This document shows, in pieces, positions 1 to 56,121 of a DNA stretch of 58,347 nt. The DNA comes from an uncultured bacterium (GTDB lineage: Bacteria; Hydrothermota; Tepidihabitantia; Tepidihabitantales; JBDRVQ01). Made by a program: the position numbers and the translations under genes. Positions within the stretch are counted from its first letter, which is position 1. Every line of letters starts with the position of its first letter. The stretch lies in contig CAYRLZ010000060.1 in the NCBI GenBank assembly GCA_964425275.1, positions 1 to 58,347 on the forward strand, given 5' to 3'. The notes under the pieces are model-generated. The model saw only the letters and a program-made list of their open reading frames with translations. It searched no databases and was not told the origin of the DNA.

Positions 1-2694
1 GAAATCCTTAAAACCGCCTCTCCCACGGATATGATTACGGTAATCGTCCGAACCAAAGAGCAAGCCGACCTTACCCTTTTGCCTCCTACTGCCACTTATG
101 ATGAAAAACTTGAATACCTGAAATTCGTTGCCGAAAGGGCGCAGCGAGATATTCTTGCCTATCTCAAAACCGTGAAGGCGACGGATATTAAAAGTTATTC
201 ACTTGTTTCCGACATCGTCTTAAAGACAACACCGGAGGTGATTAAGAAATTAGCCGAAAGGGAAGATGTTGATTTTATTACCGATGACTTTGTGGTAAAG
301 ATTCACGACCACTGGCCAGGCGAGCAAGTTGCGAGGGATGCGACCGATGCCCCGGAGTGGAATATTACTAAGGTGAGTGCGGATGCCTGCTGGGCGGACG
401 GCTATACCGGACAAGGTGTTGTTGTCTCCAACCTTGACACCGGGGTTGATGTCTCCCATCCGGCATTTGGCAACCGGTGGCGCTCAACCGATGGTTGGTT
501 TGATGGTGTCAACGGTCGGACAACTCCCTACGATGACAATGGGCACGGCACCCATACGATGGGAACGATTACCGGTGGTGATGGCTTGGGTCCTTTTACT
601 AATGATATCGGGGTTGCCCCGGGCGCGACCTTCATTGCGGCCAAGGGGTTTAACTCCAGTGGCTCTGGTCAAGCCACCTGGATAATTGCTTGTTTTAACT
701 GGCTTGCCCAGACCGGTCGCCCCAATGTTGTTTCTAATTCCTGGGGAGGTTCCCGCACCACCACTACCTGGTGGCAATATATTGTTAATTTAAGAAACCT
801 AGGGATTGTTGTTGTGGTTTCAATTGGCAACTCTGGTCCTAATGGGTCAACTTCTAACTCACCCGGGAATTTCCCAATAGTGATTGGTGTCGGAGCAACC
901 GATGCCGCTGATAACATCGCCAGTTACTCCAGTCGTGGACCGGCTCCTAACCAAGACCCCTGGAATAACCCAGCTAACTGGCCAAGACCTGACTGGAATT
1001 TAATAAATCCGGCAATATCGGCCCCTGGTTCTGGTGTCCGCTCCGCGGCTCCGGGTGGCGGTTATGCCAGTATGAGCGGCACTTCTATGGCTTGCCCCCA
1101 TGTTGCTGGCGCGGTTGCCTTGATGCTGGAAAAACGGGCTAATATCAGCCCGGATGAGGCATTCAATCTCATTACCGATAATTGTGACCGTCCTTCTCAG
1201 GGTGGGACCTATCCCAACAATAACTATGGCTGGGGAAGATTGAACTGTAAAAAAGTTCTGGATGCAATGGTTCCGGCCAATCGCCCGAATATTCTCCTCT
1301 CCCGAACCGACATAACTGGTGACCCAAATAATAACCACCGCCTTGACCCGGGTGAGACCGGAAATCTTATAACCTATCTCAGAAATACATCAGCCGTTCC
1401 GGCAACCAATTTAAGGGGAATTTTAAGGACTACTGACCCTTATCTGACAATCTCTGATTCTACGGCTAATTATGGAAATGTTGGTGGTCAGGACAGCACC
1501 AATAACTTAACTGACCCCTATGTTTTGACCGCGAGTAGTTCCACACCACCTGGTTATACCGCAAACCTTTCCCTTTACTTAGTTTGCGATGAGACATCCT
1601 GGACCAAACCATTCTCCTTAACCATTGGTCAACCCCCACCGCAACCCGGGCAAAAAATCTGGGGACCAAGGCAGGTTTCCGGAACACCGAGCGGGGCTGG
1701 ACTTTATGGGCTTGCCTATAATCCAACCAATGACCGGATATATGTCTGCCACTTCCGAGCCCGAACCATCTTTATTTATTCCTCTGATTCTTTGCTTACC
1801 TCCTTTGGCACTATCCCAACACCAAACAATGAGACCGCCTGCACTGATATAAAATACTGTGCCTATGACAATACCTTCTGGGTTGCCTCTAATCAGACGA
1901 AACGGGTTTATAAAATATCCGCTACGGGAACGGTTCTTCGGCAATTTGCCAATCCGGCAAACGACTATCCTACTGGACTTTGTTGGGACGAAAACGAAGG
2001 TCTTCTCTATCTGGCTGACCGAAGGGCAGTTGGTGTTCAGCCTGGTTATATCTATGTCGTTGATACCTTGGGCACTCAAATCCGGCGGATGACTATTCCT
2101 TTGAGCGCCAATGTTGGTCCGCGTGGTTTGGCATTAGAAGTGTCAACCGGCAATCCTGACCGACCAACCCTTTGTCACCTCTATACCTCTTTTAATGCCG
2201 CGGGTAATGCAGTTGATAGTGTTGGCGTCTATGAGTTAAAGCGGGATGATATCTCAATCTTGCAGCGCTTTCTTATCACTGAAAGGTATAATGCCCGAGG
2301 TGTTGAATATGACCCAAGGGATGCCAGCCTCTGGGTGACGATAATGGAAATGGCCGCGGGAGGTCCTAATAACTACATCATAAAATATACTGGCTTCCAT
2401 GAGCAGACCGGTGTTGAAGAGCCGAAATTACCGCTCAGAGATATATCGGGTGTGCGTTGTTTTCCCAATCCCTTCAACAAATCCCTAACCATCTCCTATC
2501 AGTTAAAGAAGTCATCGGATGTTCGGGTATCAATCCACGATGTTACTGGGAGAATGCTTACCTGCCTCCAGAAAGGCAAACTGAATTCAGGAATCTATCA
2601 TCACACCTGGAATGGGGAGAATGTCTCCGGTATCTACTTTGTGAATATCCGCACGAATCAGGAGAACCTCTGGTATAAGGTAATCAAATTCTAA
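1..2694 (+). CDS. Secreted subtilisin-like (S8) serine protease with a beta-propeller-like region and a T9SS C-terminal sorting domain. The 5' end probably runs off the window.
   Basis: ORF 31..2694. The frame stays open back to nt 1, and there is no signal peptide at the first in-window Met. Triad motifs DTGVD, HGTHTMGT and GTSMACPHVAG are present. The N-terminal segment looks like a propeptide. The C-terminus (FPNPFNKSLTISY...SGIYFVNI) matches the T9SS type A CTD pattern. Confidence 0.85.
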   Translation, partial: EILKTASPTDMITVIVRTKEQADLTLLPPTATYDEKLEYLKFVAERAQRDILAYLKTVKATDIKSYSLVSDIVLKTTPEVIKKLAEREDVDFITDDFVVKIHDHWPGEQVARDATDAPEWNITKVSADACWADGYTGQGVVVSNLDTGVDVSHPAFGNRWRSTDGWFDGVNGRTTPYDDNGHGTHTMGTITGGDGLGPFTNDIGVAPGATFIAAKGFNSSGSGQATWIIACFNWLAQTGRPNVVSNSWGGSRTTTTWWQYIVNLRNLGIVVVVSIGNSGPNGSTSNSPGNFPIVIGVGATDAADNIASYSSRGPAPNQDPWNNPANWPRPDWNLINPAISAPGSGVRSAAPGGGYASMSGTSMACPHVAGAVALMLEKRANISPDEAFNLITDNCDRPSQGGTYPNNNYGWGRLNCKKVLDAMVPANRPNILLSRTDITGDPNNNHRLDPGETGNLITYLRNTSAVPATNLRGILRTTDPYLTISDSTANYGNVGGQDSTNNLTDPYVLTASSSTPPGYTANLSLYLVCDETSWTKPFSLTIGQPPPQPGQKIWGPRQVSGTPSGAGLYGLAYNPTNDRIYVCHFRARTIFIYSSDSLLTSFGTIPTPNNETACTDIKYCAYDNTFWVASNQTKRVYKISATGTVLRQFANPANDYPTGLCWDENEGLLYLADRRAVGVQPGYIYVVDTLGTQIRRMTIPLSANVGPRGLALEVSTGNPDRPTLCHLYTSFNAAGNAVDSVGVYELKRDDISILQRFLITERYNARGVEYDPRDASLWVTIMEMAAGGPNNYIIKYTGFHEQTGVEEPKLPLRDISGVRCFPNPFNKSLTISYQLKKSSDVRVSIHDVTGRMLTCLQKGKLNSGIYHHTWNGENVSGIYFVNIRTNQENLWYKVIKF

Positions 2695-2714
2695 AAAGAG
2701 GAGAAAAATAAGAA

Positions 2715-2745
2715 GGCGGGAGAGATTTCTCCCGCCTTTTCTTTT
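2715..2745 (+). terminator. Rho-independent terminator, possibly bidirectional
   Basis: GGCGGGAGA (2715-2723), loop GATT, TCTCCCGCC (2728-2736), then TTTTCTTTT. An A-rich run lies on the other side. Confidence 0.7.
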
Positions 2746-2760
2746 ACTTGTGTAAGGCTA

Positions 2761-2928
2761 AGAAGGAGATTTAGAGGAGGACACAGAAAGAGGCACAGGG
2801 AGGGGAAGAAAGAACCTAACAGGGAGCCGGTCAGGAGGAGATAGAGAAGGGGGCTGAGAAAGGAGAAGAGAGGATAAGGAGATAGGGAAAAGGATTAGGG
2901 AAGGGATAGAGAAAGAGACAGGGTAAGA
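2761..2928 (-). repeat. Degenerate distal part of array A1. The 12-nt lattice fades into a polypyrimidine (minus strand) / polypurine (plus strand) tract.
   Basis: The plus strand is almost pure A/G. In-register 12-mers GATAGGGAAAAG, GATTAGGGAAGG, GATAGAGAAAGA and GACAGGGTAAGA lie at 2881-2928. There are many AGGAG/GGA motifs. Confidence 0.7.
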
Positions 2929-3144
2929 GACCGATAATAGCACTCCCAATAGGACGTTTTATAGGACCAAGAATAGCATCACCAATAGCATCCGGAATAG
3001 GACGGAGAATAGGAAAGGGAATAGAACACTCAGTAGGAAAGAGAATAGGATTCCCAATAGGTAAGAGAATAGAATCCTGAATAGAACCCCAAATAGGAAA
3101 GAGAATAGGGATTAGAATAGGACATTTAATACCATCCCGAATAG
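2929..3144 (-). repeat. Array A1: 18 phased 12-nt units with core CTATT (AATAG on the plus strand)
   Basis: Every plus-strand 12-mer from 2929 to 3144 ends in AATAG, with variants AATAC, AGTAG and TATAG. The strand given is the head-first orientation and is inferred. Confidence 0.9.
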
Positions 3145-3207
3145 CACCCCCTATACGACCCCCTATCTTTAAGGGAAAATCCCCTAAGTTTTGGATATTC
3201 AATCACT
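3145..3207 (-). other. A1 head: G-rich 12-mers AAGATAGGGGGT and CGTATAGGGGGT plus a conserved upstream block
   Basis: The minus-strand reading is AGTGATTGAATATCCAAAACTTAGGGGATTTTCCCTTAAAGATAGGGGGTCGTATAGGGGGT. It is homologous to the heads of A2, A3 and A4. Confidence 0.6.
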
Positions 3208-3282
3208 TAATACAAAAAATCGGGCTTAAAAAATATTACTGTCAGTAATATTTTCCTGGTATTCCCTTATGAACTCTTTGGA

Positions 3283-3314
3283 TAAAAAAACGCCCCACCA
3301 AAAAGATGGTGCGT
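3283..3314 (-). terminator. Rho-independent terminator of the Kelch-repeat gene
   Basis: The minus strand reads ACGCACCATCTTTTTGGTGGGGCGT followed by T7. It lies 17 nt after the stop at 3331. Confidence 0.6.
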
Positions 3315-3330
3315 CTCCTTTTCAGTCAGG

Positions 3331-4908
3331 TTATTTTATAACCACAAGTTTCTTATCTTCTTTATAGCCTTTGGTCTTAAACCGCAAGAGATAGATTCCC
3401 GCTGGTAGTCTTCTAATAGTAAATAGACCTTTATTCGTCTTTGCTGAATAGATAACTTCACCTAAGATATTGTAGATTTTTAAGGTCGCCATCTCATTCT
3501 TCGGCCAATTGTAATAAACAGTTGTGAAGCCTCTTGTTGGGTTGGAGTTAATCCGGATAGAAGTCGGGCGACTTAATTCCTGATGAGTTCCGGTATTGGG
3601 CAGTGAGGCAAGTAGAGTCGTCGTTCCGATATATTTATAGATAACATTGGTATTATTCCCCTTAATTGCGTAGATACTGCCGTCAAATGTGCAGAGCCCA
3701 CCGCCACCTTTCACATATTTCCTCTCGCTTCCCTTGGGAATCGTATCCTTAGGAACCCAGGCATCATTTGCCGGGTCATACATCCAGAACTCTTTTGTAT
3801 TATTGCCTTTGAAGGCATAGATTTTGCCATTCCAGAGGGTCATTGCAGCGCCTTCGCCGACCTTTTTACTTTTTCGGCAATAGGGATGGATAAAGGGCAT
3901 ACTCTCTTTTTTCGACCAGGAATCACCTTCTGGGCAGTATTGGTAGAATTCATTATATTTTCCCCGCAGGGCATAGATATAACTTCCATCCGAGACTAAA
4001 CAACTGCCGTCACCGTAACCTCTATCGGTTCCGACAATTTCTCGCGCATCTTTTCTTTTTTCCCAACTGTCGCCGGCGATATTAAACCGATAGAATTCCT
4101 TGGTCTTTGAGCCTTTCAAGAGATAGACAAAACCGTTCTGATAAGCGATGCCGGTTCCACCCTTCAATCCCTTTATCCCTGGGACACTGTCTAACTCCTG
4201 CCAGACAGCCGTTGCCCGGTTATAGCGCCAGAATTCCTTGGTTCCAGTTCCTGGGACAATATAAATATTGGTTAAGCCGTCGTCGGTAATACCCGAGCCT
4301 TTCCTTAGGCCGAGTTTATTTTTAATCGGAATGCTGTCAATCCAGAGTGGTGTGGTTCCTGGGAGGTAGGAATAAAAACTCTTTGTATTGTTCCCTTTTA
4401 TGATATAGATTTTGTCACCGGCGGTAATACACCCGCCACCTTTAATCTTCTTTCCATCACCAGTGGTTGGCACAGTATCGGAAAGTTTCTGCCAGTCGCT
4501 GACCGGTCGCGGGATATTTGCCACAGTCACCGAATCGGTCTTTTTATCATTATCCGGATTTTCATCTAAGTCAAGGCAGGTTGTGCATCGGGTAGTAAAG
4601 GTGCCGAGTGGTTGCGCTACCCACGGGTCAAAATAGACTGTTGTCTCCCAGTTTCGGTAGAGCGTCTTTTCTACGGTTTTTGTGCAGGAATAGGCATCAC
4701 CAATCTTAAAGATGACATCAAACCAGGCTACCGGGTCGGTCCCGACATTTTTAATTCGGGCGCGGGGGATGATTGTATCACCAAGTGGGACAGTGCCGGT
4801 CGGGGCATAGATTCTTATCGTTGCCACATCAAACTCTTCCTGTGCCTCACTACTTGTCAGTAGTCCTAAAATAATAAGTAGGGCAATTACTCCGAGTTTC
4901 TTTTTCAT
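3331..4908 (-). CDS. Secreted Kelch-repeat (beta-propeller) protein with T9SS CTD
   Basis: The ORF is 3331..4965. The preferred start is ATG 4908 (MKKKLGVIALLIILGLL signal peptide) preceded by AGGAGG. Repeated IY..KGNNTKEFW.Y blades are present. The C-terminal CTD contains LKIYNILGEVIY...AGIYLLRF. Confidence 0.8.
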   Translation of the reverse strand: MKKKLGVIALLIILGLLTSSEAQEEFDVATIRIYAPTGTVPLGDTIIPRARIKNVGTDPVAWFDVIFKIGDAYSCTKTVEKTLYRNWETTVYFDPWVAQPLGTFTTRCTTCLDLDENPDNDKKTDSVTVANIPRPVSDWQKLSDTVPTTGDGKKIKGGGCITAGDKIYIIKGNNTKSFYSYLPGTTPLWIDSIPIKNKLGLRKGSGITDDGLTNIYIVPGTGTKEFWRYNRATAVWQELDSVPGIKGLKGGTGIAYQNGFVYLLKGSKTKEFYRFNIAGDSWEKRKDAREIVGTDRGYGDGSCLVSDGSYIYALRGKYNEFYQYCPEGDSWSKKESMPFIHPYCRKSKKVGEGAAMTLWNGKIYAFKGNNTKEFWMYDPANDAWVPKDTIPKGSERKYVKGGGGLCTFDGSIYAIKGNNTNVIYKYIGTTTLLASLPNTGTHQELSRPTSIRINSNPTRGFTTVYYNWPKNEMATLKIYNILGEVIYSAKTNKGLFTIRRLPAGIYLLRFKTKGYKEDKKLVVIK

Positions 4909-46391: not shown

Positions 46392-47588
46392 ATGCGACGG
46401 ATAAAACTTGGTAAGCGATTTATCATTATCTACTTTGTGTTTGGTTCCTGTCTTTTGGCAATTTTCTGGTTTTTCTTCTCCGCCCAGCTGCTAAAAAGAT
46501 TAGCGGAGGAGACTGAGGTCCGCTCCCGAATTTTTGCCAAGTATATGTCCCGAATCACAGAGGCGATGGAGGCCAGTTCCACGGAATTGGATATAATCTT
46601 TGAAGAGGTGATTAAGAAGATTGACTTTCCCTTAATGCTCACCGATGACCAGGGCAATATTGTGAGTTACCGGAATTTGGGCAAAAATCTCTCGCTCAAG
46701 GATTTACAGAGGATAAAAGAACGATTGGGGCGAAGGCAAAAGCCAATCCCCCTTACCTTTGTTAGCGAAGAAGGCGAGCAGTTTTTGGGTGAGATATATT
46801 ATGGGCAATCAAAGACCGCCCAGTTTGTTTCACTTTTTCCTTATCTCCAGATTTTCTTTCTCGTCGTCTTTCTACTAATTGGCGGGTGGGCAATCGTCGT
46901 TTATAAAAGACGGGAAGAAGAGAAGTTGTGGACATTTTTAGCCAAGGAGACCGCGCACCAATTGGCGACCCCCCTCTCTTCTTTTTCCGGCTGGCTGGTA
47001 AATCTCCAGTCCACTAATCCGCAAATTGTCAAGGAGATGGAGGCGGATATTGAACGAATGAGCCGGGTATTAGAAAGATTCTCCCGCATCGGACAGACAC
47101 CTAAATTATCCCCCTGTTCAATCAAAGAGGTGATTGAAGAGACCTATCATTTTATCCAACGAAGAACACCCCAGAATATCAATATGGTTCTCAATATTAA
47201 GGAGGATGCCTCACTTCTCCTGGATGAAGTCTTATTATCCTGGAGTTTAGAGAATCTCTTAAAAAATAGTATTGATGCCATCGGCCAAAAACCCGGGGCG
47301 ATTATCTTAAACGCCCAAAAGGAGCCGGGCGGCCGATATTATAAAATTTCTATAACCGATACCGGTGAAGGAATATCCCACAAGAAAAAGAAGGAGATAT
47401 TTTCCCCAGGGATAACAACTAAGAAATATGGCTGGGGTGTTGGTTTGCCCCTGGCGAAAAGAATTGTTGAGGAATACCATAAAGGAAAATTGGTTTTGGT
47501 TGAATCAAAAAAGGGGAAGACAATTTTTTCTATCCTTTTACCCTTAGGAGGTATTGAACGGAAAAATTATGCGGGTCCTCTGGATTGA
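46392..47588 (+). CDS. Membrane sensor histidine kinase (PorY-like by context)
   Basis: Two TM segments flank an approximately 110-aa loop. H box ETAHQLATPL, N box LKNSIDA, G boxes DTGEG and GWGVGL. Confidence 0.85.
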   Translation: MRRIKLGKRFIIIYFVFGSCLLAIFWFFFSAQLLKRLAEETEVRSRIFAKYMSRITEAMEASSTELDIIFEEVIKKIDFPLMLTDDQGNIVSYRNLGKNLSLKDLQRIKERLGRRQKPIPLTFVSEEGEQFLGEIYYGQSKTAQFVSLFPYLQIFFLVVFLLIGGWAIVVYKRREEEKLWTFLAKETAHQLATPLSSFSGWLVNLQSTNPQIVKEMEADIERMSRVLERFSRIGQTPKLSPCSIKEVIEETYHFIQRRTPQNINMVLNIKEDASLLLDEVLLSWSLENLLKNSIDAIGQKPGAIILNAQKEPGGRYYKISITDTGEGISHKKKKEIFSPGITTKKYGWGVGLPLAKRIVEEYHKGKLVLVESKKGKTIFSILLPLGGIERKNYAGPLD

Positions 47589-49080
47589 TGATGAGATTGA
47601 ATTACTGAACCCCTATATCTATCTCTTAAAGGAGAGGGGCTACGAGGTGGATACGGCGGCTAATGGTCCGGATGGCTTGCGGCTCGTTACGACCAAAGGC
47701 TATGATTTGATATTCGTTGACCAGATGATGCCCGGGGTAGAAGGCCTGGCGGTGGTGGAGGCAATTAAAGGCTTTGACCCTTCCGCGGTGATTGTGATGG
47801 TGACAAAATTGGGTGAAGAGGAACTGATGGAGGAGGCTTATTCTAAATTAGTGGACGATTTCATCGTCAAGCCTTTCTCTCCTCATCAGATAATCTCGGT
47901 GGTGAAGCGATTATTAGAGAAGAGAAAGATTATTACTGAAAAGTTGACCCGAGACTATCTTGCGTTCCTGCGGGAGGAGAGGAATTTTAATTCCTTTACC
48001 GAATGGCGTGATTATTACCTCCGATTGATCCGTTGGCGATTTCTCATTGAAAGATTTGGCGAAGAGAGTTTAAAAGAGACCCTAGGTGATATTCAGCGAC
48101 AGGCGAATGATGACTTTGCTTGCTTTGTGGAGGAGATTTATCCCTCCTGGTTGGAGGGAAAAGAAGAGCCACCGCTTTTATCCCATAAGGTCTTTGGTAA
48201 TCTTTTGGCACCTTATCTTCGAGAAAAACCGTTATACTTCTTTATCTTTGATTCAATGCGGCTTGACCAGTGGTATCTTTTAGTTCCCCTCCTAAAAGAA
48301 TACTTCAATATCCGACAATTTTACTATCTATCAATCTTACCTTCGGCGACGCCCTATTCCCGCAATGCCTTGCTCTCCGGACTTTTGCCCTTAGAAATTC
48401 ATACCCGATATCCTAATCTCTGGGTTTTTGATGAGATGGGACAGAACCGTTACGAGAAAGAACTCCTCGCCAAACTTTTGGCCCAAGAGAAAATTGGTGG
48501 CCCTTGGTTTTATTTGAAGGCGACGAAGAGTGAAGATATTGAAGAACAGAGGGGAATGCTCTTACGGAAGGATGTCCGATTTGCCTGTATCGTAGTAAAT
48601 TTTCTTGACTTTCTTCTCCATGCGGCCAGACCGGCTAAGCCGCTGGAGGATATTTTGGAAAACGAAAGTTCTTTCTTACAACTGACCCGAACCTGGTTTG
48701 CCAATTCACCCTTCTTTGAATTTATCAAGGAATTGGCGAATCAGGACTGCCGGGTGATAATTACTACTGACCATGGTTTCATCAAGGTCAAAAGACCAAC
48801 CATCATCTTTGGTGATATGGAAATATCATCCAATCTCCGATACAAACATGGCTCGGCTTTAAGGACAGAGGGGCGAAATGCCCTGCTCGTTTTTCCGGAG
48901 AGGCTTGGATTACCCAAGGCCAGCCCAGATGAGAAGATGGCGATTGCCAAATCCGATTTTTATTTCATCTACCCGACAAAACCGACTCAATACGAAAGGA
49001 CCTATAAATTTACCTACCAGCACGGTGGTATATCTCTGGAGGAGATGATTCTGCCTTTGGGGATCTTAGAGAAGCGGTGA
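47569..49080 (+). CDS. porX: Response regulator with CheY receiver and PglZ/alkaline-phosphatase-superfamily domain (PorX-like)
   Basis: Start at ATG 47569 (MRVLWIDDE). Receiver Asp in IFVDQMMPG. C-terminal PglZ-like blocks (FFIFDSMRLDQW, ITTDHGF). Confidence 0.75.
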   Translation: MRVLWIDDEIELLNPYIYLLKERGYEVDTAANGPDGLRLVTTKGYDLIFVDQMMPGVEGLAVVEAIKGFDPSAVIVMVTKLGEEELMEEAYSKLVDDFIVKPFSPHQIISVVKRLLEKRKIITEKLTRDYLAFLREERNFNSFTEWRDYYLRLIRWRFLIERFGEESLKETLGDIQRQANDDFACFVEEIYPSWLEGKEEPPLLSHKVFGNLLAPYLREKPLYFFIFDSMRLDQWYLLVPLLKEYFNIRQFYYLSILPSATPYSRNALLSGLLPLEIHTRYPNLWVFDEMGQNRYEKELLAKLLAQEKIGGPWFYLKATKSEDIEEQRGMLLRKDVRFACIVVNFLDFLLHAARPAKPLEDILENESSFLQLTRTWFANSPFFEFIKELANQDCRVIITTDHGFIKVKRPTIIFGDMEISSNLRYKHGSALRTEGRNALLVFPERLGLPKASPDEKMAIAKSDFYFIYPTKPTQYERTYKFTYQHGGISLEEMILPLGILEKR

Positions 49081-50129
49081 TGCGTTTTATTGAATTGCCA
49101 TTGATGTCTTTGGAGATGAAGCCCGGGCTGGTTCGTTTTACCACACCGCTGATTATCGAACCGAAGGGTCTAAAATCCCTGGCGGAAGATTTCTTTAATC
49201 TATTTAAGGAGAAGATTTATCCCGAGGCAAAAAAACTTGGCGCGCCCAAGAAGGAGGCAAATGCCGATACCTTCCCTATCTATTTAACCAATCGGGAAAT
49301 TGCCTACCTAAATTTTGTCTATGATATCGACCACACCCGATTATCCTTTGAGACCCCTAAAAAAGAACTCACCGAGCCTTTATTCCGGCTTTTGCGGGAA
49401 CAGCGAATAATCAAACCGGACTTAGAGTATATTCGGGAGAAGGTCTTCGGTGGACTACGGGAGGTGGTGGCCGCTTTACTCTGGCAGGTCGGGGCGATAA
49501 AGGTTAGTCTCGGTGATATCAGACCATTCTTTAAGGTTGACGAGCGGAAAAACCAGAGCCCAATTTATATTGATGTGAAGTGCTTGCCTAACTTTCCTCT
49601 GGTCTTTGATTTTTTAATCAGCCAGTCGGCCTTAATCCTCCAACACTACGATTTTGACCTCATCTGTGGGATTGAAGCCGGCAGTATCGCCTTTGCCACT
49701 GCCCTGGCTCAGAAGTTTAACCGACCAAGTTTCTTTGCCCGTCGGGAGCGACGTTACCCTGAGGCATCACTCTTGGAAGGGATAAAAGACCACGAGATTT
49801 TTAAGAAAAAGGTTTTGCTCTTTGATGATACGATTGTTAAGGGCTGGACAAAGCGGCGCGTGGTTGAAGCCCTGCGGCAAAAGGGGGCAATCTGTGAATA
49901 TACCTTTGTCATCTTTGACCGTCTGCAAGGAGGGAAGGAAGACCTTTTGGCCTTAGACTGTCAGTTACTCTCTTTAACCGACCGTGATGCCCTCCTTTCC
50001 AAAAGGATTCCGAAGGCCATCACTTTACTTACAGAAATGGAATATAAGGAAATTCTGGAATACTTCGCTGACCCAAAGAAGTGGCATAATAAAAAAGGTT
50101 TCCCTTATTTTGAGTTGAAACCAAAGTAA
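49077..50129 (+). CDS. Type I phosphoribosyltransferase (orotate-PRTase-like) with an unassigned N-terminal extension of about 125 aa
   Basis: PRPP motif VLLFDDTIVKGWT. PyrE-like SPIYIDVKCL block. The start overlaps the porX-like stop (ATGA-type overlap: ATG 49077-49079, TGA 49078-49080). Confidence 0.7.
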   Translation: MMRFIELPLMSLEMKPGLVRFTTPLIIEPKGLKSLAEDFFNLFKEKIYPEAKKLGAPKKEANADTFPIYLTNREIAYLNFVYDIDHTRLSFETPKKELTEPLFRLLREQRIIKPDLEYIREKVFGGLREVVAALLWQVGAIKVSLGDIRPFFKVDERKNQSPIYIDVKCLPNFPLVFDFLISQSALILQHYDFDLICGIEAGSIAFATALAQKFNRPSFFARRERRYPEASLLEGIKDHEIFKKKVLLFDDTIVKGWTKRRVVEALRQKGAICEYTFVIFDRLQGGKEDLLALDCQLLSLTDRDALLSKRIPKAITLLTEMEYKEILEYFADPKKWHNKKGFPYFELKPK

Positions 50130-50159
50130 AAAATTAAACACTTATCTCTTTACTTCCTC

Positions 50160-50375
50160 CTAATCAATTAGGTAGAGAATTAGACTCGGAATTAGACTAT
50201 CAATTAGACCGAGAATTAGACAGAGGATTAGCCACAGGAGTACTTCTTCCATTAGTTAGAGAATTAGGATGGCGATTAGACACTTAATTAGCCTTTCGGT
50301 TAGAAAAAGAATTAGTTAGAGAATTAGCCGCTCAATTAGTATCTGGATTAGGCGGAGAATTACACCGAGAATTAA
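50160..50375 (-). repeat. Array A4: 18 phased 12-nt units with core CTAATT
   Basis: ATTAG or a variant occurs on the plus strand at 50167 + 12n. It contains the same core-less unit CTAACCGAAAGG followed by CTAATTAAGTGT as A3. Confidence 0.9.
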
Positions 50376-50450
50376 ACCCGGAAGGCGACCCAGAGGGCAA
50401 CCCCCTATCTTTTTAAAAAATCCCATAAGTTCTGTTAAATCAAAGGCTTA
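50376..50450 (-). other. A4 head: conserved block plus AAGATAGGGGGT, TGCCCTCTGGGT and CGCCTTCCGGGT
   Basis: See the A3 head. The minus-strand reading is TAAGCCTTTGATTTAACAGAACTTATGGGATTTTTTAAAAAGATAGGGGGTTGCCCTCTGGGTCGCCTTCCGGGT. Confidence 0.6.
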
Positions 50451-50471
50451 TACCAAAAAAGGGTATTTGGA

Positions 50472-50507
50472 AACCGGAAGTATATTTCTGGAAGTATACT
50501 TCTGGTT
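50472..50507 (-). terminator. Long hairpin between the lnt-C25 gene and the A4 head; possible terminator
   Basis: AACCGGAAGTATA / TATACTTCTGGTT arms (one G-T pair) with a 10-nt loop. On the minus strand a T6 run follows only after 12 nt, so this is not canonical. Confidence 0.3.
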
Positions 50508-50685
50508 AATTTTGCAACAGGTGATAATTTACTGGCTATAAATTTGGCTCTTCATAACTTCCCGGGAGGAGACCTTTGAAAAAGGCCTGATGATAGCGAT
50601 AAAAGCAAGATGGACATATCGTTAATAGAGGGGTTAAGACTTTTTCACTGTTGACAAAATCTCTTTCCGGGTAATCTTGGGTGGG

Positions 50686-53600
50686 TTATTTTATCAAAAT
50701 CACCTTTCGGGAGATAGAGAAATCCTTGGTCTGTAAAGAGAAGAAATAGATACCGGGTGGTAGGCTTCTTTTTCTCTGGTCTTTGCCATCCCATGTTGCC
50801 GTATAAATGCCCGGCTCTTTCACACCCCTGGTTATTGGCCGAACCAAACGACCGGTAATATCATAGATGTTTAATGATAGCCACTGTCGGTTGGGGATTT
50901 GGTACCGGATATTTGTCCTTTGCCGAAATGGATTGGAGTAAGTCAAACTGAATAACGGGCTTTCATAGGGGAGATAATTAGGTGCGGTCACGGTTATGAT
51001 GATTTCGTCCCTTTCTTCTCCGTTGATTGGGAATTTTATCTGCCCATCTTTATCGGTAGTGCCGTAATAGTAGAAATCCGGTGAGAGGGGTTTTGTTAGA
51101 CAGACCAATGCCTTTGGGATTGGTTGGCCGGTGATACTATCCTTTACCTCAACGACAAAAATCTGGGAACCCAAAAATTTATGAGAAACAACCATCGGTT
51201 TTGGGACCTTGGTCCAGATATTCAGTTCCGGGTCACCTAAAAGGCTCCACTCCCGATAGAAATATTCGTTAGCGTCTCCGGAATAGGGAGGAGAGGCGAT
51301 GCTATCCTTGCCTCTTAGAAATGCCTTCCCCAAAATTAAATTATCATTAACCATAACCGTCCGGAGGAAGGTTCGGACGAACCGACCGCGCCAGCGGCCA
51401 AAGCCGCCACCGAGCTGGGTTCCGAAAAAGGCCACGGCACCCTTTAAGTCTTCTCCTCCCCCTTTCACCCGCAGCCACCGCTCACCAACCGTGTTTTCAC
51501 TCTTAAAGATTGTATGGCAGGAACCAGAGATAATTATTGGCAATTTATAACCATTCTGTAACCTTTCGTCCTCCGGCTCAACCGTGAAGGGATAGGCCCA
51601 GTTGCCTGAGGCATGCCCCCGATAGAGAACGAGACTGCTTCCTTCATTTAAGGAGGCGATTATATCATCGGCATCGTCATATCCTTGATGACCAAAGAGT
51701 GTGTCGTTAAAGATTGTGTCAACCTTTGAATAGCGGAGACGGAGGATTGAATCATCATAAGGGAACTCCTCGCTATAAATTGGGTTAGCCGGTCGGCCGC
51801 CAAAGTCCCACATAAATATCAGCGTCGCCCTTTTATACCAGAGGGTATCTTCTCTTTTTGGGAAGCGCTCATAGGTTAAAATCTTTTGCACCATCGTCTG
51901 ACATTCGTCAACATTCCGACAGGGAAGTCGTCCGACCGGTATCTCCGCCCGGTAATCGCCTTCCATATCACCATAAAAATTGTCGCCCAATAAGAGTTGG
52001 TAAGAGTAATAAAGGGAGTCCCCGGGTGGGATATAATTTTTATCCCCAACCAGAAGGAGATACTCCGGACCGATAGATTTTATAATCCTCTTTATTGAAT
52101 CCGGCGAGGCACGATAAGGAACCTTTACAATCTCGGCCTTTACCCCTTTCTTGGTCTTCCACTCTTTTAATGGCTGGAGGGCATCAAAAAACTTCTCATT
52201 AGTGATTATAAGATAACGGCAATCAGTAGCGCCATTGACGATTACCGCACTAAATACAAAAATTAAAAGTCCAACCGACTTCCTCCGATGCAAGCTACCG
52301 CCGGCCATTCTCAGAATGAGAATGATTATTGAAAGATAGATAAACCAATCACCAAATCGCAAATAGAAAGTAGAGGGTAATGGTTTCGGAAGATTTCCGT
52401 AAAGAACCATTTCGGTAAAGAGGGGGGTCTTTTTAATCACCTCACCATAAGGAGAGACGATTAAAGAAATTCCATTATTCGCCGAGCGCAGAAGTGGTTT
52501 CCCCAATTCCACACTCCTCATTACCGCTAACTCGCAATGCTGATAAGGTCCGGGTGTCTTACCAAACCAACCGTCATTGGTAATATTTACCAGAAGGTCG
52601 GCTCCCCTTAAAACAAATTCCCGGGTTAAATCCGGAAAAATTGACTCAAAACAGATAAGGCAACTGGCTTTAGCCAAAGGGGTGGAAAAGACGGTGAATT
52701 CCTTTCCTGGGGTAAAATTTCCCATATCCGCGGTAGCAAAGGGCTTAAAAATTGGGAACTTGTCAATGTAAGGAATCCTTTCGGAGAAAGGGACCGGATG
52801 AATCTTCTTATAAATTCCGGTAATGCCATTTTCCGGGTCAATCAAAACCGCGCCGTTAAAGTAAGCGTTATCCTCATAGATTGGTGTTCCGATTAAGATA
52901 TAGACCCCGTAAGTCTGGCTAATTCTTAAAAACTCATCTTTTAGCCAAATCTCTTTGGTCAAATCAAATAAGGAGGCGGTCTCCGGATAGATTAAAAGGA
53001 AAGGCTTTTCTTTTATCGCCTCTTGAGTCAATTGGAGTAAAGAGCGGATATTCTCTTCTATCGTGCTTCTATCCCCCTTCTCATTCGGGCTGACATTGGG
53101 CTGAATGATTGCCACCTTAAAATTATTCTCTACCCCTTTCATTCGCAAAAGACCATAGGAAAGAGGAATGAGAAAGGTGAGGATTAAAGTTATCGCCCAT
53201 CTTTTCTTTCTGGTAAAGAGTAATTGATAGATTATAAGATTTAAAAAAACGACAAAGGCGGAAAGACCATAGACACCGGTGATGGAGGCGAATTGGATTA
53301 AGGGCAAATAAGGGGTCTGGGTATAACCCAAAAGACCCCAGGGAAAGCCAATCTCTGACTTTGTGCGGATAAACTCAAGGAGTGCCCAGAGCAAAGGGGC
53401 GATAAATAATCCGAACTTCTTCACCCCCAAACCAAAGACCAATCCGTAGAGACCAAAATAACCAAAGAGGACGAAAACTCCAAGGTAGAGAAGAAATTTC
53501 GTCTTCTCCAAAACCGGCACGACCAAAAAATAAAGCCACCAGAGATGAAAAAGGGCAAAGAGGAAAAAGAAGAGGAAGGAATAAAAGAGTGCCTTTTTGA

Positions 53601-53733
53601 GCGATGACTTTGTAATCAAATAAAAGAGCGGGACTAAGGAGAAGTAGGCGAGGAAGCGGAAGGGAAAAGGGGAAAAGGCAAGGTTTAAGGCGAAGGGCGA
53701 GAGAAAGAAAAGAACTTTCCCAAACTTACCCAT
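50686..53733 (-). CDS. lnt: In-frame fusion of apolipoprotein N-acyltransferase (Lnt), C25 gingipain-like cysteine peptidase and T9SS CTD
   Basis: Residues 1-475 hold 8 TM segments and a CN-hydrolase domain (IYPETA, CLICFES, NITNDGWF). From Met476 (nt 52308) there is a signal-peptide-like segment, then C25 blocks (YLLLVGD..IP, VGRLP, YRGHASGNW, IIISGSCHT). The C-terminal CTD contains NIYDITGRLV...PGIYFFSL. Confidence 0.8.
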   Translation of the reverse strand: MGKFGKVLFFLSPFALNLAFSPFPFRFLAYFSLVPLFYLITKSSLKKALFYSFLFFFLFALFHLWWLYFLVVPVLEKTKFLLYLGVFVLFGYFGLYGLVFGLGVKKFGLFIAPLLWALLEFIRTKSEIGFPWGLLGYTQTPYLPLIQFASITGVYGLSAFVVFLNLIIYQLLFTRKKRWAITLILTFLIPLSYGLLRMKGVENNFKVAIIQPNVSPNEKGDRSTIEENIRSLLQLTQEAIKEKPFLLIYPETASLFDLTKEIWLKDEFLRISQTYGVYILIGTPIYEDNAYFNGAVLIDPENGITGIYKKIHPVPFSERIPYIDKFPIFKPFATADMGNFTPGKEFTVFSTPLAKASCLICFESIFPDLTREFVLRGADLLVNITNDGWFGKTPGPYQHCELAVMRSVELGKPLLRSANNGISLIVSPYGEVIKKTPLFTEMVLYGNLPKPLPSTFYLRFGDWFIYLSIIILILRMAGGSLHRRKSVGLLIFVFSAVIVNGATDCRYLIITNEKFFDALQPLKEWKTKKGVKAEIVKVPYRASPDSIKRIIKSIGPEYLLLVGDKNYIPPGDSLYYSYQLLLGDNFYGDMEGDYRAEIPVGRLPCRNVDECQTMVQKILTYERFPKREDTLWYKRATLIFMWDFGGRPANPIYSEEFPYDDSILRLRYSKVDTIFNDTLFGHQGYDDADDIIASLNEGSSLVLYRGHASGNWAYPFTVEPEDERLQNGYKLPIIISGSCHTIFKSENTVGERWLRVKGGGEDLKGAVAFFGTQLGGGFGRWRGRFVRTFLRTVMVNDNLILGKAFLRGKDSIASPPYSGDANEYFYREWSLLGDPELNIWTKVPKPMVVSHKFLGSQIFVVEVKDSITGQPIPKALVCLTKPLSPDFYYYGTTDKDGQIKFPINGEERDEIIITVTAPNYLPYESPLFSLTYSNPFRQRTNIRYQIPNRQWLSLNIYDITGRLVRPITRGVKEPGIYTATWDGKDQRKRSLPPGIYFFSLQTKDFSISRKVILIK

Positions 53734-53781
53734 CTTTAATTATAACAGAAAATTGAGAAAAAGGAAGAGAAAATTTCCTTC

Positions 53782-53943
53782 TTAAAAATTTTTGCCTTTT
53801 TCACCATAATATTCCTTTATCTTTTGGGTCAAGCCGTTTGCTAATTCTTTATAAGGAGTGGCTTGTTGAGTCTTAAAATATCTAATCAGAAGTTTTAAGG
53901 TAGAGCCATCTCGGAACACTGCTTTTATGCTCCTTCTTCCCAT
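53782..53943 (-). CDS. Possible 53-codon ORF overlapping the 3' end of the candidate endonuclease gene
   Basis: Not in the track (under 60 aa). Sequence: MGRRSIKAVFRDGSTLKLLIRYFKTQQATPYKELANGLTQKIKEYYGEKGKNF. No SD seen. Confidence 0.2.
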   Translation of the reverse strand: MGRRSIKAVFRDGSTLKLLIRYFKTQQATPYKELANGLTQKIKEYYGEKGKNF

Positions 53944-54665
53944 AACTTCTCGTTATCCAAAATTTTCCTCCAAGTTCTTAATTCTAAATCTTTCACTTCT
54001 TCAAAACTTTTTTCCGGTGTCGCGTCAAAATTAATTTCTGGTAAGCCTGGTAAATTTTCTTTCCACTTTTTAAACCAAGAGAGGATATTATTCCATATCT
54101 CAGGATGCTTTAAATATTTAAATAATTCTTCGCCATAAAAAAGATGGAGTTTAACGCCGTAGAATTTTTCGAGTCTTTTAAGTTGCTGAAGATAATAATT
54201 TTCATTTTTAGAAAGGCCGGGGTCTATAAAATACATAAAACCTACTAATTGTGAGCCGTGTCTTTTATGTAAAATTTCAATCTTCGTTTCAAAATTAGAT
54301 ATCTGCCCTTGCTTTTTAGTAGAATCATGGTCGTCTCTTACCTTTTGCTCAACGAAATAATATATGCGTCCATCCGTAAAATACTGGTCTAATGCTAATG
54401 TTTCGCCACTTTCGTTTACTATACTTTTAGATAAAATTCTAAAGCCAAGGGATTTCAGGATTTCTTCTATTATTTCTTCAAGGGCGTCTCCCATTCGTAT
54501 TTCATGAGATTGAAGAAGGTGTTGTAAAATTTTTGCTCCTGGTTTTGTTGGTCTAAATAAACCGATAAAACGTTCTGGGTTCTCCGCAATTCGCCGCAAA
54601 AGTTCTTTTTTCTCACCTTCAAATATATGTTTGTTCAAAATCGAAGAAAATGCCTTGTAATTCAT
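53925..54665 (-). CDS. Candidate type II restriction endonuclease (PD-(D/E)xK-like)
   Basis: Contains D93...E106-x-K108 (LALDQYF...YYFVEQKVRDD). It is the last gene of a methyltransferase operon. Confidence 0.45.
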   Translation of the reverse strand: MNYKAFSSILNKHIFEGEKKELLRRIAENPERFIGLFRPTKPGAKILQHLLQSHEIRMGDALEEIIEEILKSLGFRILSKSIVNESGETLALDQYFTDGRIYYFVEQKVRDDHDSTKKQGQISNFETKIEILHKRHGSQLVGFMYFIDPGLSKNENYYLQQLKRLEKFYGVKLHLFYGEELFKYLKHPEIWNNILSWFKKWKENLPGLPEINFDATPEKSFEEVKDLELRTWRKILDNEKLWEEGA

Positions 54666-54694
54666 TCGTTCCTCCTGACTTCACATAGTCTTAA

Positions 54695-55168
54695 TCACTT
54701 CTTATATTTTTCAATGTAATACTCCTCTGAGTAAGATGGCAAATCCTCCTTAGAAATAATTTCAAACTCAATCTTATTCTCATGAAGAAATTTAGTTATG
54801 CTTAGTAAAGGGAGATCTAAAAAATAAATTTTATTTACGTCGCTATACTCAAATTTTACATTCTTACCTCTCCATTCCGCTTCCCAGAAGGGCATGTCAT
54901 AAAAATCTTGGCTATTTTCTTCCACATCGTACCGATAAGGATAAATTTTGTTTTTCTCCATTAAGCGTCTTGCCGATAATTCAATTATTACATCACCGTA
55001 GAAAGAAAGATAATCGCTCAAAATATCCGAAAAGCTAATAGTATCTTCGTCATAGCCACTTATTCGCCTTCCTTTTGGAGTAAAAACTTTTTCTTCCAGT
55101 ATAGCAATAAGGTTACTTAGAGATGTTGCGTGATATAAATACTTTGGGAAATTGCCTCCTTTTTTCAT
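54695..55168 (-). CDS. Unknown 157-aa protein inserted between the methyltransferase and the candidate endonuclease
   Basis: The start overlaps the MTase stop (ATGA). N-terminal LYHATSLSNLIAILEE and central WEAEWR motifs. Confidence 0.6.
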   Translation of the reverse strand: MKKGGNFPKYLYHATSLSNLIAILEEKVFTPKGRRISGYDEDTISFSDILSDYLSFYGDVIIELSARRLMEKNKIYPYRYDVEENSQDFYDMPFWEAEWRGKNVKFEYSDVNKIYFLDLPLLSITKFLHENKIEFEIISKEDLPSYSEEYYIEKYKK

Positions 55169-56121
55169 TCAACCACCTCTAAGTTTAGATAATTGTTTAT
55201 GTATTTTTTACCTGTAAATGATAAGTCAAGTATCTTTAATGAACATTTAAACCTTTGTTCTATGCCTTTTACATACTTCGGATTGACTTCGATCATAACG
55301 AAATCCCTTTTTAATGCCTGTGCCACATATCCAGTTGTTCCTGTCCCCGCTACAGGGTCCAAAACCAAATCTCCTTCCTTGGTCGATACCAAAATCACTC
55401 TCCTAAGAAGTTCTATCGGTTTTTGTGTAGAGTGTAGCTTTTTCCCACTTTCATCTTTTAGTCTTTCATCACCCCAGCAGAGAGGTAAAACCCAAACATT
55501 TGCACCAACTTTTCCGATGCCAAACCTTTTGGCGTATTCTTTATTAAAAGTGTATCCCTTAACATGTTTATCCTTTACCGCCCAAATTAAGGTCTCGGTA
55601 GCATTTGTGAACCTCACACCTAACCAATTGGGCATTGGGTTGGTCTTTACCCAAATCACATCGTTGAGAATCCAATAGCCTAAATCTTGCATAATTTTCC
55701 CAATTCTAAAAATGCTGTGGTAAGTAGCAATAACCCAAATTGTAGCAGTTTTTTTCATTACTCTTTTTACCTCCGTGAGCAATTTTTTGATAAATTCATC
55801 GTATTCTTGAAAAGAGGAAAATTTATCCCATTCGTCATTTACCCCTTCAACAACAGTTTTTACCTTCCACCGTCTTAATTCTTTATTTGGTAACTGCAAA
55901 AAATAAGGCGGGTCAATAAAAACCATGTCAAAGACCTCGTCTTCTATTCTTGGGAGAACCTGGAAGGTGTCGCCTAAGATAACTTTATTTCTGATTTCGT
56001 CAATTTTATAAATAGCCTTCCGGTCATTATCCTTTACCAATATCCTCCTACCTTTTCTTTGGCGTCTTTCGTATTTAAACAGAATTTCCTGTTTGGTTTT
56101 AGATTTATCTTTTTCTCCCAT
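55165..56121 (-). CDS. Beta-class N6-adenine (or N4-cytosine) DNA methyltransferase, CcrM/M.HinfI-like
   Basis: FIDPPYF first, then IWVIATYHSIFRIG, NDVIWVKTNPMPN, FTNATETLIWA, HSTQKP and DPVAGTGTTG. This circularly permuted motif order is that of beta-class enzymes. Confidence 0.9.
   Translation of the reverse strand: MGEKDKSKTKQEILFKYERRQRKGRRILVKDNDRKAIYKIDEIRNKVILGDTFQVLPRIEDEVFDMVFIDPPYFLQLPNKELRRWKVKTVVEGVNDEWDKFSSFQEYDEFIKKLLTEVKRVMKKTATIWVIATYHSIFRIGKIMQDLGYWILNDVIWVKTNPMPNWLGVRFTNATETLIWAVKDKHVKGYTFNKEYAKRFGIGKVGANVWVLPLCWGDERLKDESGKKLHSTQKPIELLRRVILVSTKEGDLVLDPVAGTGTTGYVAQALKRDFVMIEVNPKYVKGIEQRFKCSLKILDLSFTGKKYINNYLNLEVVE

Follow-up and report, generated by a model that had tools for sequence, protein, structure and literature searches.

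In-frame fusion of apolipoprotein N-acyltransferase with a C25 peptidase and its signal-like segment in an uncultured hot-spring bacterium

Can a polytopic membrane enzyme and a secreted protease share one reading frame without the loss of either? This question is raised by a 58,347-nucleotide contig of an uncultured bacterium (CAYRLZ010000060.1, assembly GCA_964425275.1; the whole stretch is called the window below), in which the gene for apolipoprotein N-acyltransferase, lnt, runs in frame into a gingipain-like peptidase of family C25 that ends in a type IX secretion system (T9SS) sorting domain. The reading we favor is a lineage-specific in-frame fusion of two translationally coupled genes, tolerated through preserved membrane topology and a probable cleavage by signal peptidase I; we give it a probability of roughly 0.55.

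Architecture of the fused reading frame

In the list of open reading frames (ORFs) the fused ORF extends over 50686..53733, with 1015 codons and a stop; it and all of its parts lie on the minus strand. Profiles, alignment, hydropathy and an AlphaFold2 (AF2) model together delimit the Lnt part to codons 1-484 (52282..53733), which contain the Pfam domains LNT_N (residues 15-166) and CN_hydrolase (206-449), the catalytic triad and the last transmembrane helix. The NCBIfam equivalog TIGR00546 for lnt scored 338.7 bits (cut-off 132.9), and alignment of the Lnt part with structures of E. coli Lnt extends as far as residue 467. In the alignment with 8q2p_A, residues E251, K310 and C361 stand opposite E. 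coli E267, K335 and C387; C361 is the cysteine of the CLICFES motif, and Cys387 is named for E. coli Lnt in PMC5500888.

Behind Lnt, and ahead of the peptidase, lies the segment SVGLLIFVFSAVIVNGA (codons 486-502, 52228..52278), which by hydropathy and comparison with orthologs appears to be a retained signal-peptide core and is modeled by AF2 at a predicted local distance difference test score (pLDDT) below 50. Peptidase_C25 (PF01364) matched codons 507-838 (51220..52215) with 148.5 bits against a cut-off of 23, covering positions 1-373 of the 374 of the profile, and gingipain R structures were matched by this part at E values of 3e-14 to 9e-14. H707 (in YRGHASGNW; 51613-51615) and C739 (in IIISGSCHT; 51517-51519) are aligned with the catalytic histidine and cysteine of gingipain R (1cvr_A, chain positions 211 and 244). 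Between protease and C-terminal domain, Pfam and AF2 place an Ig-like beta domain (50932..51150), with a CarboxypepD_reg-like match at residues 862-934 that does not reach the Pfam cut-off. The T9SS type A sorting domain occupies codons 932-1012 (50698..50940), where FlgD_ig and Por_Secre_tail matches were found in Pfam and TIGR04183 scored 33.1 bits in NCBIfam (cut-off 23); the sorting-domain model PF18962 remained below its cut-off, at 21.4 against 27. The AF2 model had a mean pLDDT of 83.9, with both enzyme domains predicted confidently. Identification of the fused protein as the T9SS sortase PorU (NF033707) was excluded, at 70.1 bits against a cut-off of 420.

An earlier note, written from the letters alone, had described this ORF as Lnt, C25 peptidase and T9SS C-terminal domain (CTD) in one frame, with a signal-like segment at the junction and the catalytic residues of both enzymes present. 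The domain matches, the hydropathy and the alignments with solved enzymes bear out each of these points, and the position of nt 52308 given for Met476 fits the minus strand. The joining of Lnt, C25 and T9SS-CTD in one frame is a genuine fusion in which the signal-like segment has been kept.

A fusion search in a database of 5.8 billion public proteins yielded 87 matches among 1205 candidates of 558-1777 amino acids, and only the protein of the window itself spanned both sides; no second Lnt and C25 protein was found. In the literature collection that was searched, no paper named both apolipoprotein N-acyltransferase and peptidase C25, and none listed for type IX secretion and C25 named WOR-3. 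The fusion is most likely specific to the lineage of a single uncultured WOR-3-like hot-spring population, the taxon names being those of database labels.

Ancestral gene boundary and change of frame

The whole fused protein was searched against 41 related genomes, all of which gave a match at E ≤ 0.001. Among them an orthologous C25 gene adjoining lnt was present only in genomes of the family itself. By tblastn, 3 of 91 lnt loci had a C25 ortholog directly adjacent, and at E ≤ 1e-120 the ortholog group was limited to the family, with matches in 3 of the 66 genomes of the order: the one that carries the fused ORF (G000), G001 and G002. The family's remaining genome of four, G003, is 77% complete. 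Three further stand-alone C25 orthologs of 520-530 amino acids, each with its own N-terminal signal peptide, were found in the protein database; a contig scan with the ortholog P0088 gave four distant loci only, at 22-34% identity, and no context for P0088. In a distant lineage, an unrelated C25 gene (28% identity) lies ∼750 nt downstream of lnt at L054:1215-2597 and L084:4043-5425, a proximity that is probably coincidental, C25 genes being numerous in such genomes.

All three relatives with the gene pair have two separate ORFs, in the same order and orientation as in the window, which overlap by exactly 4 nt: lnt and C25 lie at 1471..2946 and 2..1474 in G002 (locus L003), at 3..1169 and 1166..1471 in G001 (locus L002), and at 1864..3327 and 3324..4892 in the metagenome locus L013. 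The overlap reads ATGA in each. Lnt and C25 of the window align with those of the pairs at 72-87% and 64-67% identity, respectively. As in the window, a signal peptide precedes the (R)YLIIT with which the relatives' C25 domain begins, but their peptidase is encoded by an ORF coupled to lnt through the overlap, whereas the window has one ORF with neither stop nor start at this place. By this comparison the fusion derives from two genes, and the loss of a stop codon, which the earlier note had offered as one alternative, is right in substance. Within the G001 C25 ortholog (L002:1353-1471) a run of N, translated as X, is flanked by different frames on either side, which suggests a scaffold gap or withheld bases and not a true interruption of the gene.

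The position of the former boundary can be read from the Lnt tail. The DNA of the junction is ...ATT CTG AGA ATG GCC GGC GGT AGC TTG CAT CGG AGG AAG TCG GTT..., and hydropathy showed two separate hydrophobic peaks, at residues 459-481 and 484-505, with none beyond 505. In the relatives, Lnt continues for 22-25 residues beyond a GD motif into a basic cluster (RRR, RRRR or KLKER) and then stops. HRRK (482-485) of the window lies at the same distance from GD as these clusters, and in an equal-length alignment the TGA stop of G001 falls on the AAG codon of K485. The position of this stop and the length of the relatives' tails therefore place Met476 (52306-52308) inside the tail of Lnt, as does the AF2 model, in which one unbroken helix runs from 463 to 484 through Met476 and is followed at 484-502 by a low-confidence coil (pLDDT <50), which suits a signal peptide. 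Relatives, hydropathy and AF2 assign the eighth helix of Lnt and its cytoplasmic basic tail to codons 459-485 (52279..52359), and alignment with the relatives puts the fusion point, where they have the ATGA overlap, at codons 482-486 (HRRKS; 52276..52290). The ancestral boundary, as judged from these sequences, is thus at about codon 485 and not at Met476.

This moves the boundary away from R475/Met476, where the earlier note had placed it; residues 476-484 belong to the Lnt tail. Codon 475 is AGA and an out-of-frame cTGAgaATG is present, both as the note had described, but neither can be taken for the remains of the lnt stop. No relative has a stop at the position of AGA475, the relatives' stop lying some 10 codons further downstream at K485, and the frame of the TGA contains a TAA 12 nt upstream, so that a frameshift would be needed within those 12 nt. 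The GGAGG of codons 483-484 was considered as a Shine-Dalgarno sequence and rejected: the sole suitably spaced start-like triplet is a TTG, which is out of frame and meets a TAA after 3 codons.

The nature of the change follows from the distance between FGD in lnt and YLII in the peptidase, which is 141 nt in the window (a multiple of three) and 173, 137 and 146 nt in the relatives, each leaving a remainder of two. The window has consequently gained 3n+1 or lost 3n+2 bases. Beyond the position of the G001 stop, ungapped alignments at offsets 0-3 matched at just 9-16 of 45 nt; the signal-peptide DNA is too diverged for the exact indel to be placed, and only the net change of frame can be given. 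In the ancestor, lnt would have overlapped by ATGA with the gene behind it, which encoded a small secreted C25 peptidase with a T9SS sorting domain. A small indel would have removed the stop of the one and the start of the other and brought the frames into register, in the simplest case through the loss of 2 nt in or beside ATGA.

An indel error of 1-2 nt at the ATGA overlap, made in sequencing or consensus building, would give the same picture in an organism that truly has two genes. One or two altered bases would be enough, the genome is a metagenome-assembled genome of 100 contigs, and its sequence is known from contigs and not from raw reads. The stretch was recovered in two public runs, X1, which is probably the source sample of the window, and X2, from a different study; no RNA run was listed as containing it. 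In X2 an identical strain and a ∼94% identical strain were present in parts of the stretch, but no piece covered 52037-52371, leaving a hole at the junction. From X1, an independently assembled Logan contig of 3323 nt with a word depth of 41.2 was identical to the window over 51300-53300 and had no variant listed. The junction sequence is reproducible between assemblers, X1 itself not being independent of the window. Moreover, there is no long homopolymer nearby, neither ATG nor TGA is left at the expected place, and the tail differs from those of all relatives at many positions, so that it is not a two-gene sequence with a single-base slip. We regard an artefact as very improbable.

The peptidase might also be made mainly as a separate pre-protein, through internal initiation at Met476 (ATG) or Leu481 (TTG; 52291-52293), with the fused chain as a minor by-product. 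The ATG at codon 476 is found in the window where the relatives have other residues and could be a new, compensating start; clear Shine-Dalgarno sequences are missing from most genes here (714 of 1094 crude starts have none), and an AT-rich stretch of 24 nt precedes ATG476, its GC fraction being 0.29 compared to 0.36 for starts. Against this, the context of ATG476 scored -4.87 in a crude start-versus-internal-ATG matrix built on crude start calls, a value exceeded by 97.7% of putative starts and by 80% of internal ATGs. As lnt has no stop, its ribosomes would cross the site and make the fusion in any case. No promoter-like minus-strand site was seen in 52310-52600, in a scan that was at background level throughout: promoter and terminator searches of 50100-54000 gave 5 and 8 sites, with 6.5 and 5.9 expected, and are uninformative. 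Internal initiation at Met476, which the earlier note had also put forward, finds little in its favor here, and as the main source of the peptidase it is improbable.

The lnt gene of the window is itself mosaic. Its codons 1-430 are 93% identical to L013 at the amino acid level and ∼87% at the nucleotide level; from about codon 430 through the whole peptidase the identity is 50-71%, the fall to about 50-65% taking place at 52420-52480. In a tree, the C25 sequence of L013 groups with a G002-like sequence (support 94/99) and not with the window, and a neighboring M16 peptidase of L013 shares 77% identity with that of G000. The identity drop indicates an approximate recombination breakpoint inside lnt at 52420..52480, ∼45-65 codons upstream of K485, which would place it near the fusion but not coincident with it.

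Membrane topology and fate of the peptidase

The E. coli enzyme spans the membrane with eight helices, and its N- and C-termini are both cytoplasmic (PMC5500888). Hydropathy and the AF2 helices of the window agree with an eight-helix Lnt, whose C-terminus after the fusion is no longer free. The topology argument of the earlier note, that a signal-like helix following a cytoplasmic Lnt C-terminus would re-export the peptidase, is supported by the E. coli topology. No second lnt was found in the G000 genome, and as there is also no stop before the peptidase, the fused chain must be the product of lnt translation. All ribosomes on the only lnt of the cell would continue into the peptidase.

The N-terminal Sec signal peptide of T9SS cargo is absent from the start of the protein; the signal-like segment is instead found at residues 486-502 of 1015, behind Lnt. 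The basic tail (475-485) is followed there by the 13-residue hydrophobic core VGLLIFVFSAVIV and then by the putative cleavage site NGA/TD. This site lies 4 residues before RYLIIT, and by a reading of the orthologous sequences their likely cleavage sites, AFS/D in G002 and TFG/N in L013, are at a similar distance, so that across these proteins the small-residue site stands 4-5 residues ahead of (R)YLIIT. The eighth helix of Lnt would end in the cytoplasm with the basic tail RMAGGSLHRRK, and the former signal-peptide core SVGLLIFVFSAVIV would pass outward through the membrane, in the same way as in its former N-terminal position, so that the peptidase would still arrive in the periplasm. Signal peptidase I would probably cut at the predicted site after VNGA(502), releasing a normal mature peptidase for T9SS export and leaving Lnt with a short extra C-terminal helix. 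It is probably because of this preserved membrane topology that the fused product is tolerated. The genes for both steps are present in the same genome: signal peptidase I scored 132 bits and SprA of the T9SS machinery 408 bits combined, both over their cut-offs, and a full-length PorU-like protein scored 357 bits, under the cut-off of 420. The terminal branch of the window's C25 in the tree, 0.29 compared to a median of 0.32, gave no sign of acceleration, which together with the intact motifs would suit a retained function.

A similar arrangement is known from FbcH of Bradyrhizobium japonicum, a precursor of cytochrome b and cytochrome c1 that is reportedly split at an internal signal peptide. 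In this chain a polytopic membrane protein, its C-terminus in the cytoplasm, precedes a periplasmic protein, and removal of the internal signal reportedly yields two proteins. Of the arrangements known to us, FbcH is the closest mechanistic analogue of the model proposed here, and the window protein has the same layout, with a polytopic part, a cytoplasmic end (by homology), a short hydrophobic core and a small-residue site. FbcH, however, is conserved and both of its products act in one complex, whereas the fusion in the window is a one-off whose halves have no known functional link and whose cleavage is only predicted.

Other fusions of Lnt are known. The mycobacterial two-domain protein Lnt-Ppm (Rv2051c/BCG_2070c) joins Lnt to the product of another gene (PMC3850990). 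Among public metagenome proteins, a Pfam scan identified the putative fusions Lnt-TatC (P0011, 765 amino acids), CBS/CorC-Lnt (P0018, 910 amino acids), HAD-Lnt (P0069, 735 amino acids) and, in several clusters (P0060, P0053, P0056, P0059, P0062 and P0063), YbeY-Lnt of ∼670 amino acids. All of these likewise combine Lnt and another gene's product in one chain, but the partner attached to the cytoplasmic ends of Lnt is either a second polytopic membrane protein or a cytoplasmic domain, and no extra export step is needed. In the window the partner is a secreted enzyme attached to the cytoplasmic end of Lnt, and its re-export through its own retained signal would be required. Compared to gingipain R (RgpB, PDB 1cvr/4ief) and other T9SS-exported C25 peptidases, the peptidase shares the C25 His/Cys pair and the type A sorting domain; it differs from gingipain R in lacking a match to the N-terminal pro-domain, in being much shorter, in its low identity, and in having its signal peptide internally and not at the N-terminus.

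Several points weigh against a tolerated and processed fusion. An intact downstream frame and a normal branch length are also to be expected if the fusion is very recent and mildly harmful. Asparagine at position -3 is not the commonest choice for a signal peptidase site, and the last Lnt helix has a purely hydrophobic stretch that counts 2-4 residues fewer than its equivalent in the relatives. Expression of the chain and its cleavage are predictions from the sequence. Finally, the junction is known from assembled contigs of one population.

These points lead to the alternative that the fusion is real but a recent, unprocessed lesion. The peptidase would then be tethered to Lnt in the inner membrane or degraded, its T9SS export would be lost and the C25 half would decay into a pseudogene, with the Lnt half keeping the gene under selection. 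This would fit an architecture that was found once and is confined to one population, and the cleavage on which the favored reading depends is a predicted one. One C25 copy may also be dispensable, as G000 has many paralogs: it gave 20 matches to the fused query, and those listed besides the ORF itself fall in the C25/CTD part. On the other side stand the 540 open codons past the junction, the intact catalytic pair and CTD, the normal branch length, and the retention of both the signal core and the small-residue site, each of them weak evidence if the event was very recent. We consider such a lesion unlikely, though a serious alternative to the tolerated and processed fusion.

Of the latter, the sequences show the fusion, its origin from two genes, the catalytic residues in both halves and the genes for signal peptidase I and T9SS components; we infer that the internal signal directs translocation, that cleavage takes place and that both halves have stayed active. 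Taken furthest, the proposal is that this bacterium makes its only Lnt and a T9SS-secreted C25 protease as one natural polyprotein, which signal peptidase I splits at an internal, formerly N-terminal signal; this we put forward tentatively, at slightly less than even odds.

Neighboring genes and meaning of the fusion

Upstream of lnt, 53925-56121 may be a restriction-modification or defence islet. It contains a gene for an N6/N4 DNA methylase (55165-56121, minus strand) and, between this and lnt, two minus-strand ORFs (54695-55168 and 53925-54665) with no Pfam match. L013 has different genes upstream of lnt, and its homology with the window sets in no more than 46 nt ahead of the lnt start. 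Two plus-strand genes that overlap by 4 nt converge with the fused ORF and encode a protein with a response-regulator receiver and a PglZ domain (47554-49080) and a phosphoribosyltransferase-domain protein of 350 amino acids (49077-50129). Tandem Repeats Finder detected a repeat with a period of 12 nt, whose units contain AATTAGAC, at 50163-50231, in the space immediately downstream of the fused ORF. C25/T9SS-CTD proteins are much expanded in the 1.5-3 Mb genomes of this order, the fused query having about 20 scored matches in each; in G000 the PorU model gave 38 matches as well, most of them in the C25 core or CTD portions of long ORFs.

Both kinds of event seen here, the fusion of neighboring genes and the membrane polyprotein, are already known, and the instance that combines Lnt with C25 is apparently unique. 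For annotation it carries a warning, since this "Lnt-C25" architecture arose in one lineage and does not mark a new family of bifunctional enzymes. Apart from the points that follow, it counts as a curiosity of a single uncultured hot-spring population, an unusual and probably harmless one-off. The fusion shows how a 4-nt start/stop overlap can collapse through one small indel, and why such a fusion can be neutral where topology is preserved. If the chain is made and processed as proposed, it would be a rare natural membrane polyprotein of bacteria, in which an essential polytopic enzyme and a secreted protease are split at an internal signal. It would then offer a natural test case for internal signal peptide cleavage in bacteria, and a living snapshot of an ATGA-coupled gene pair fusing without loss of either function.

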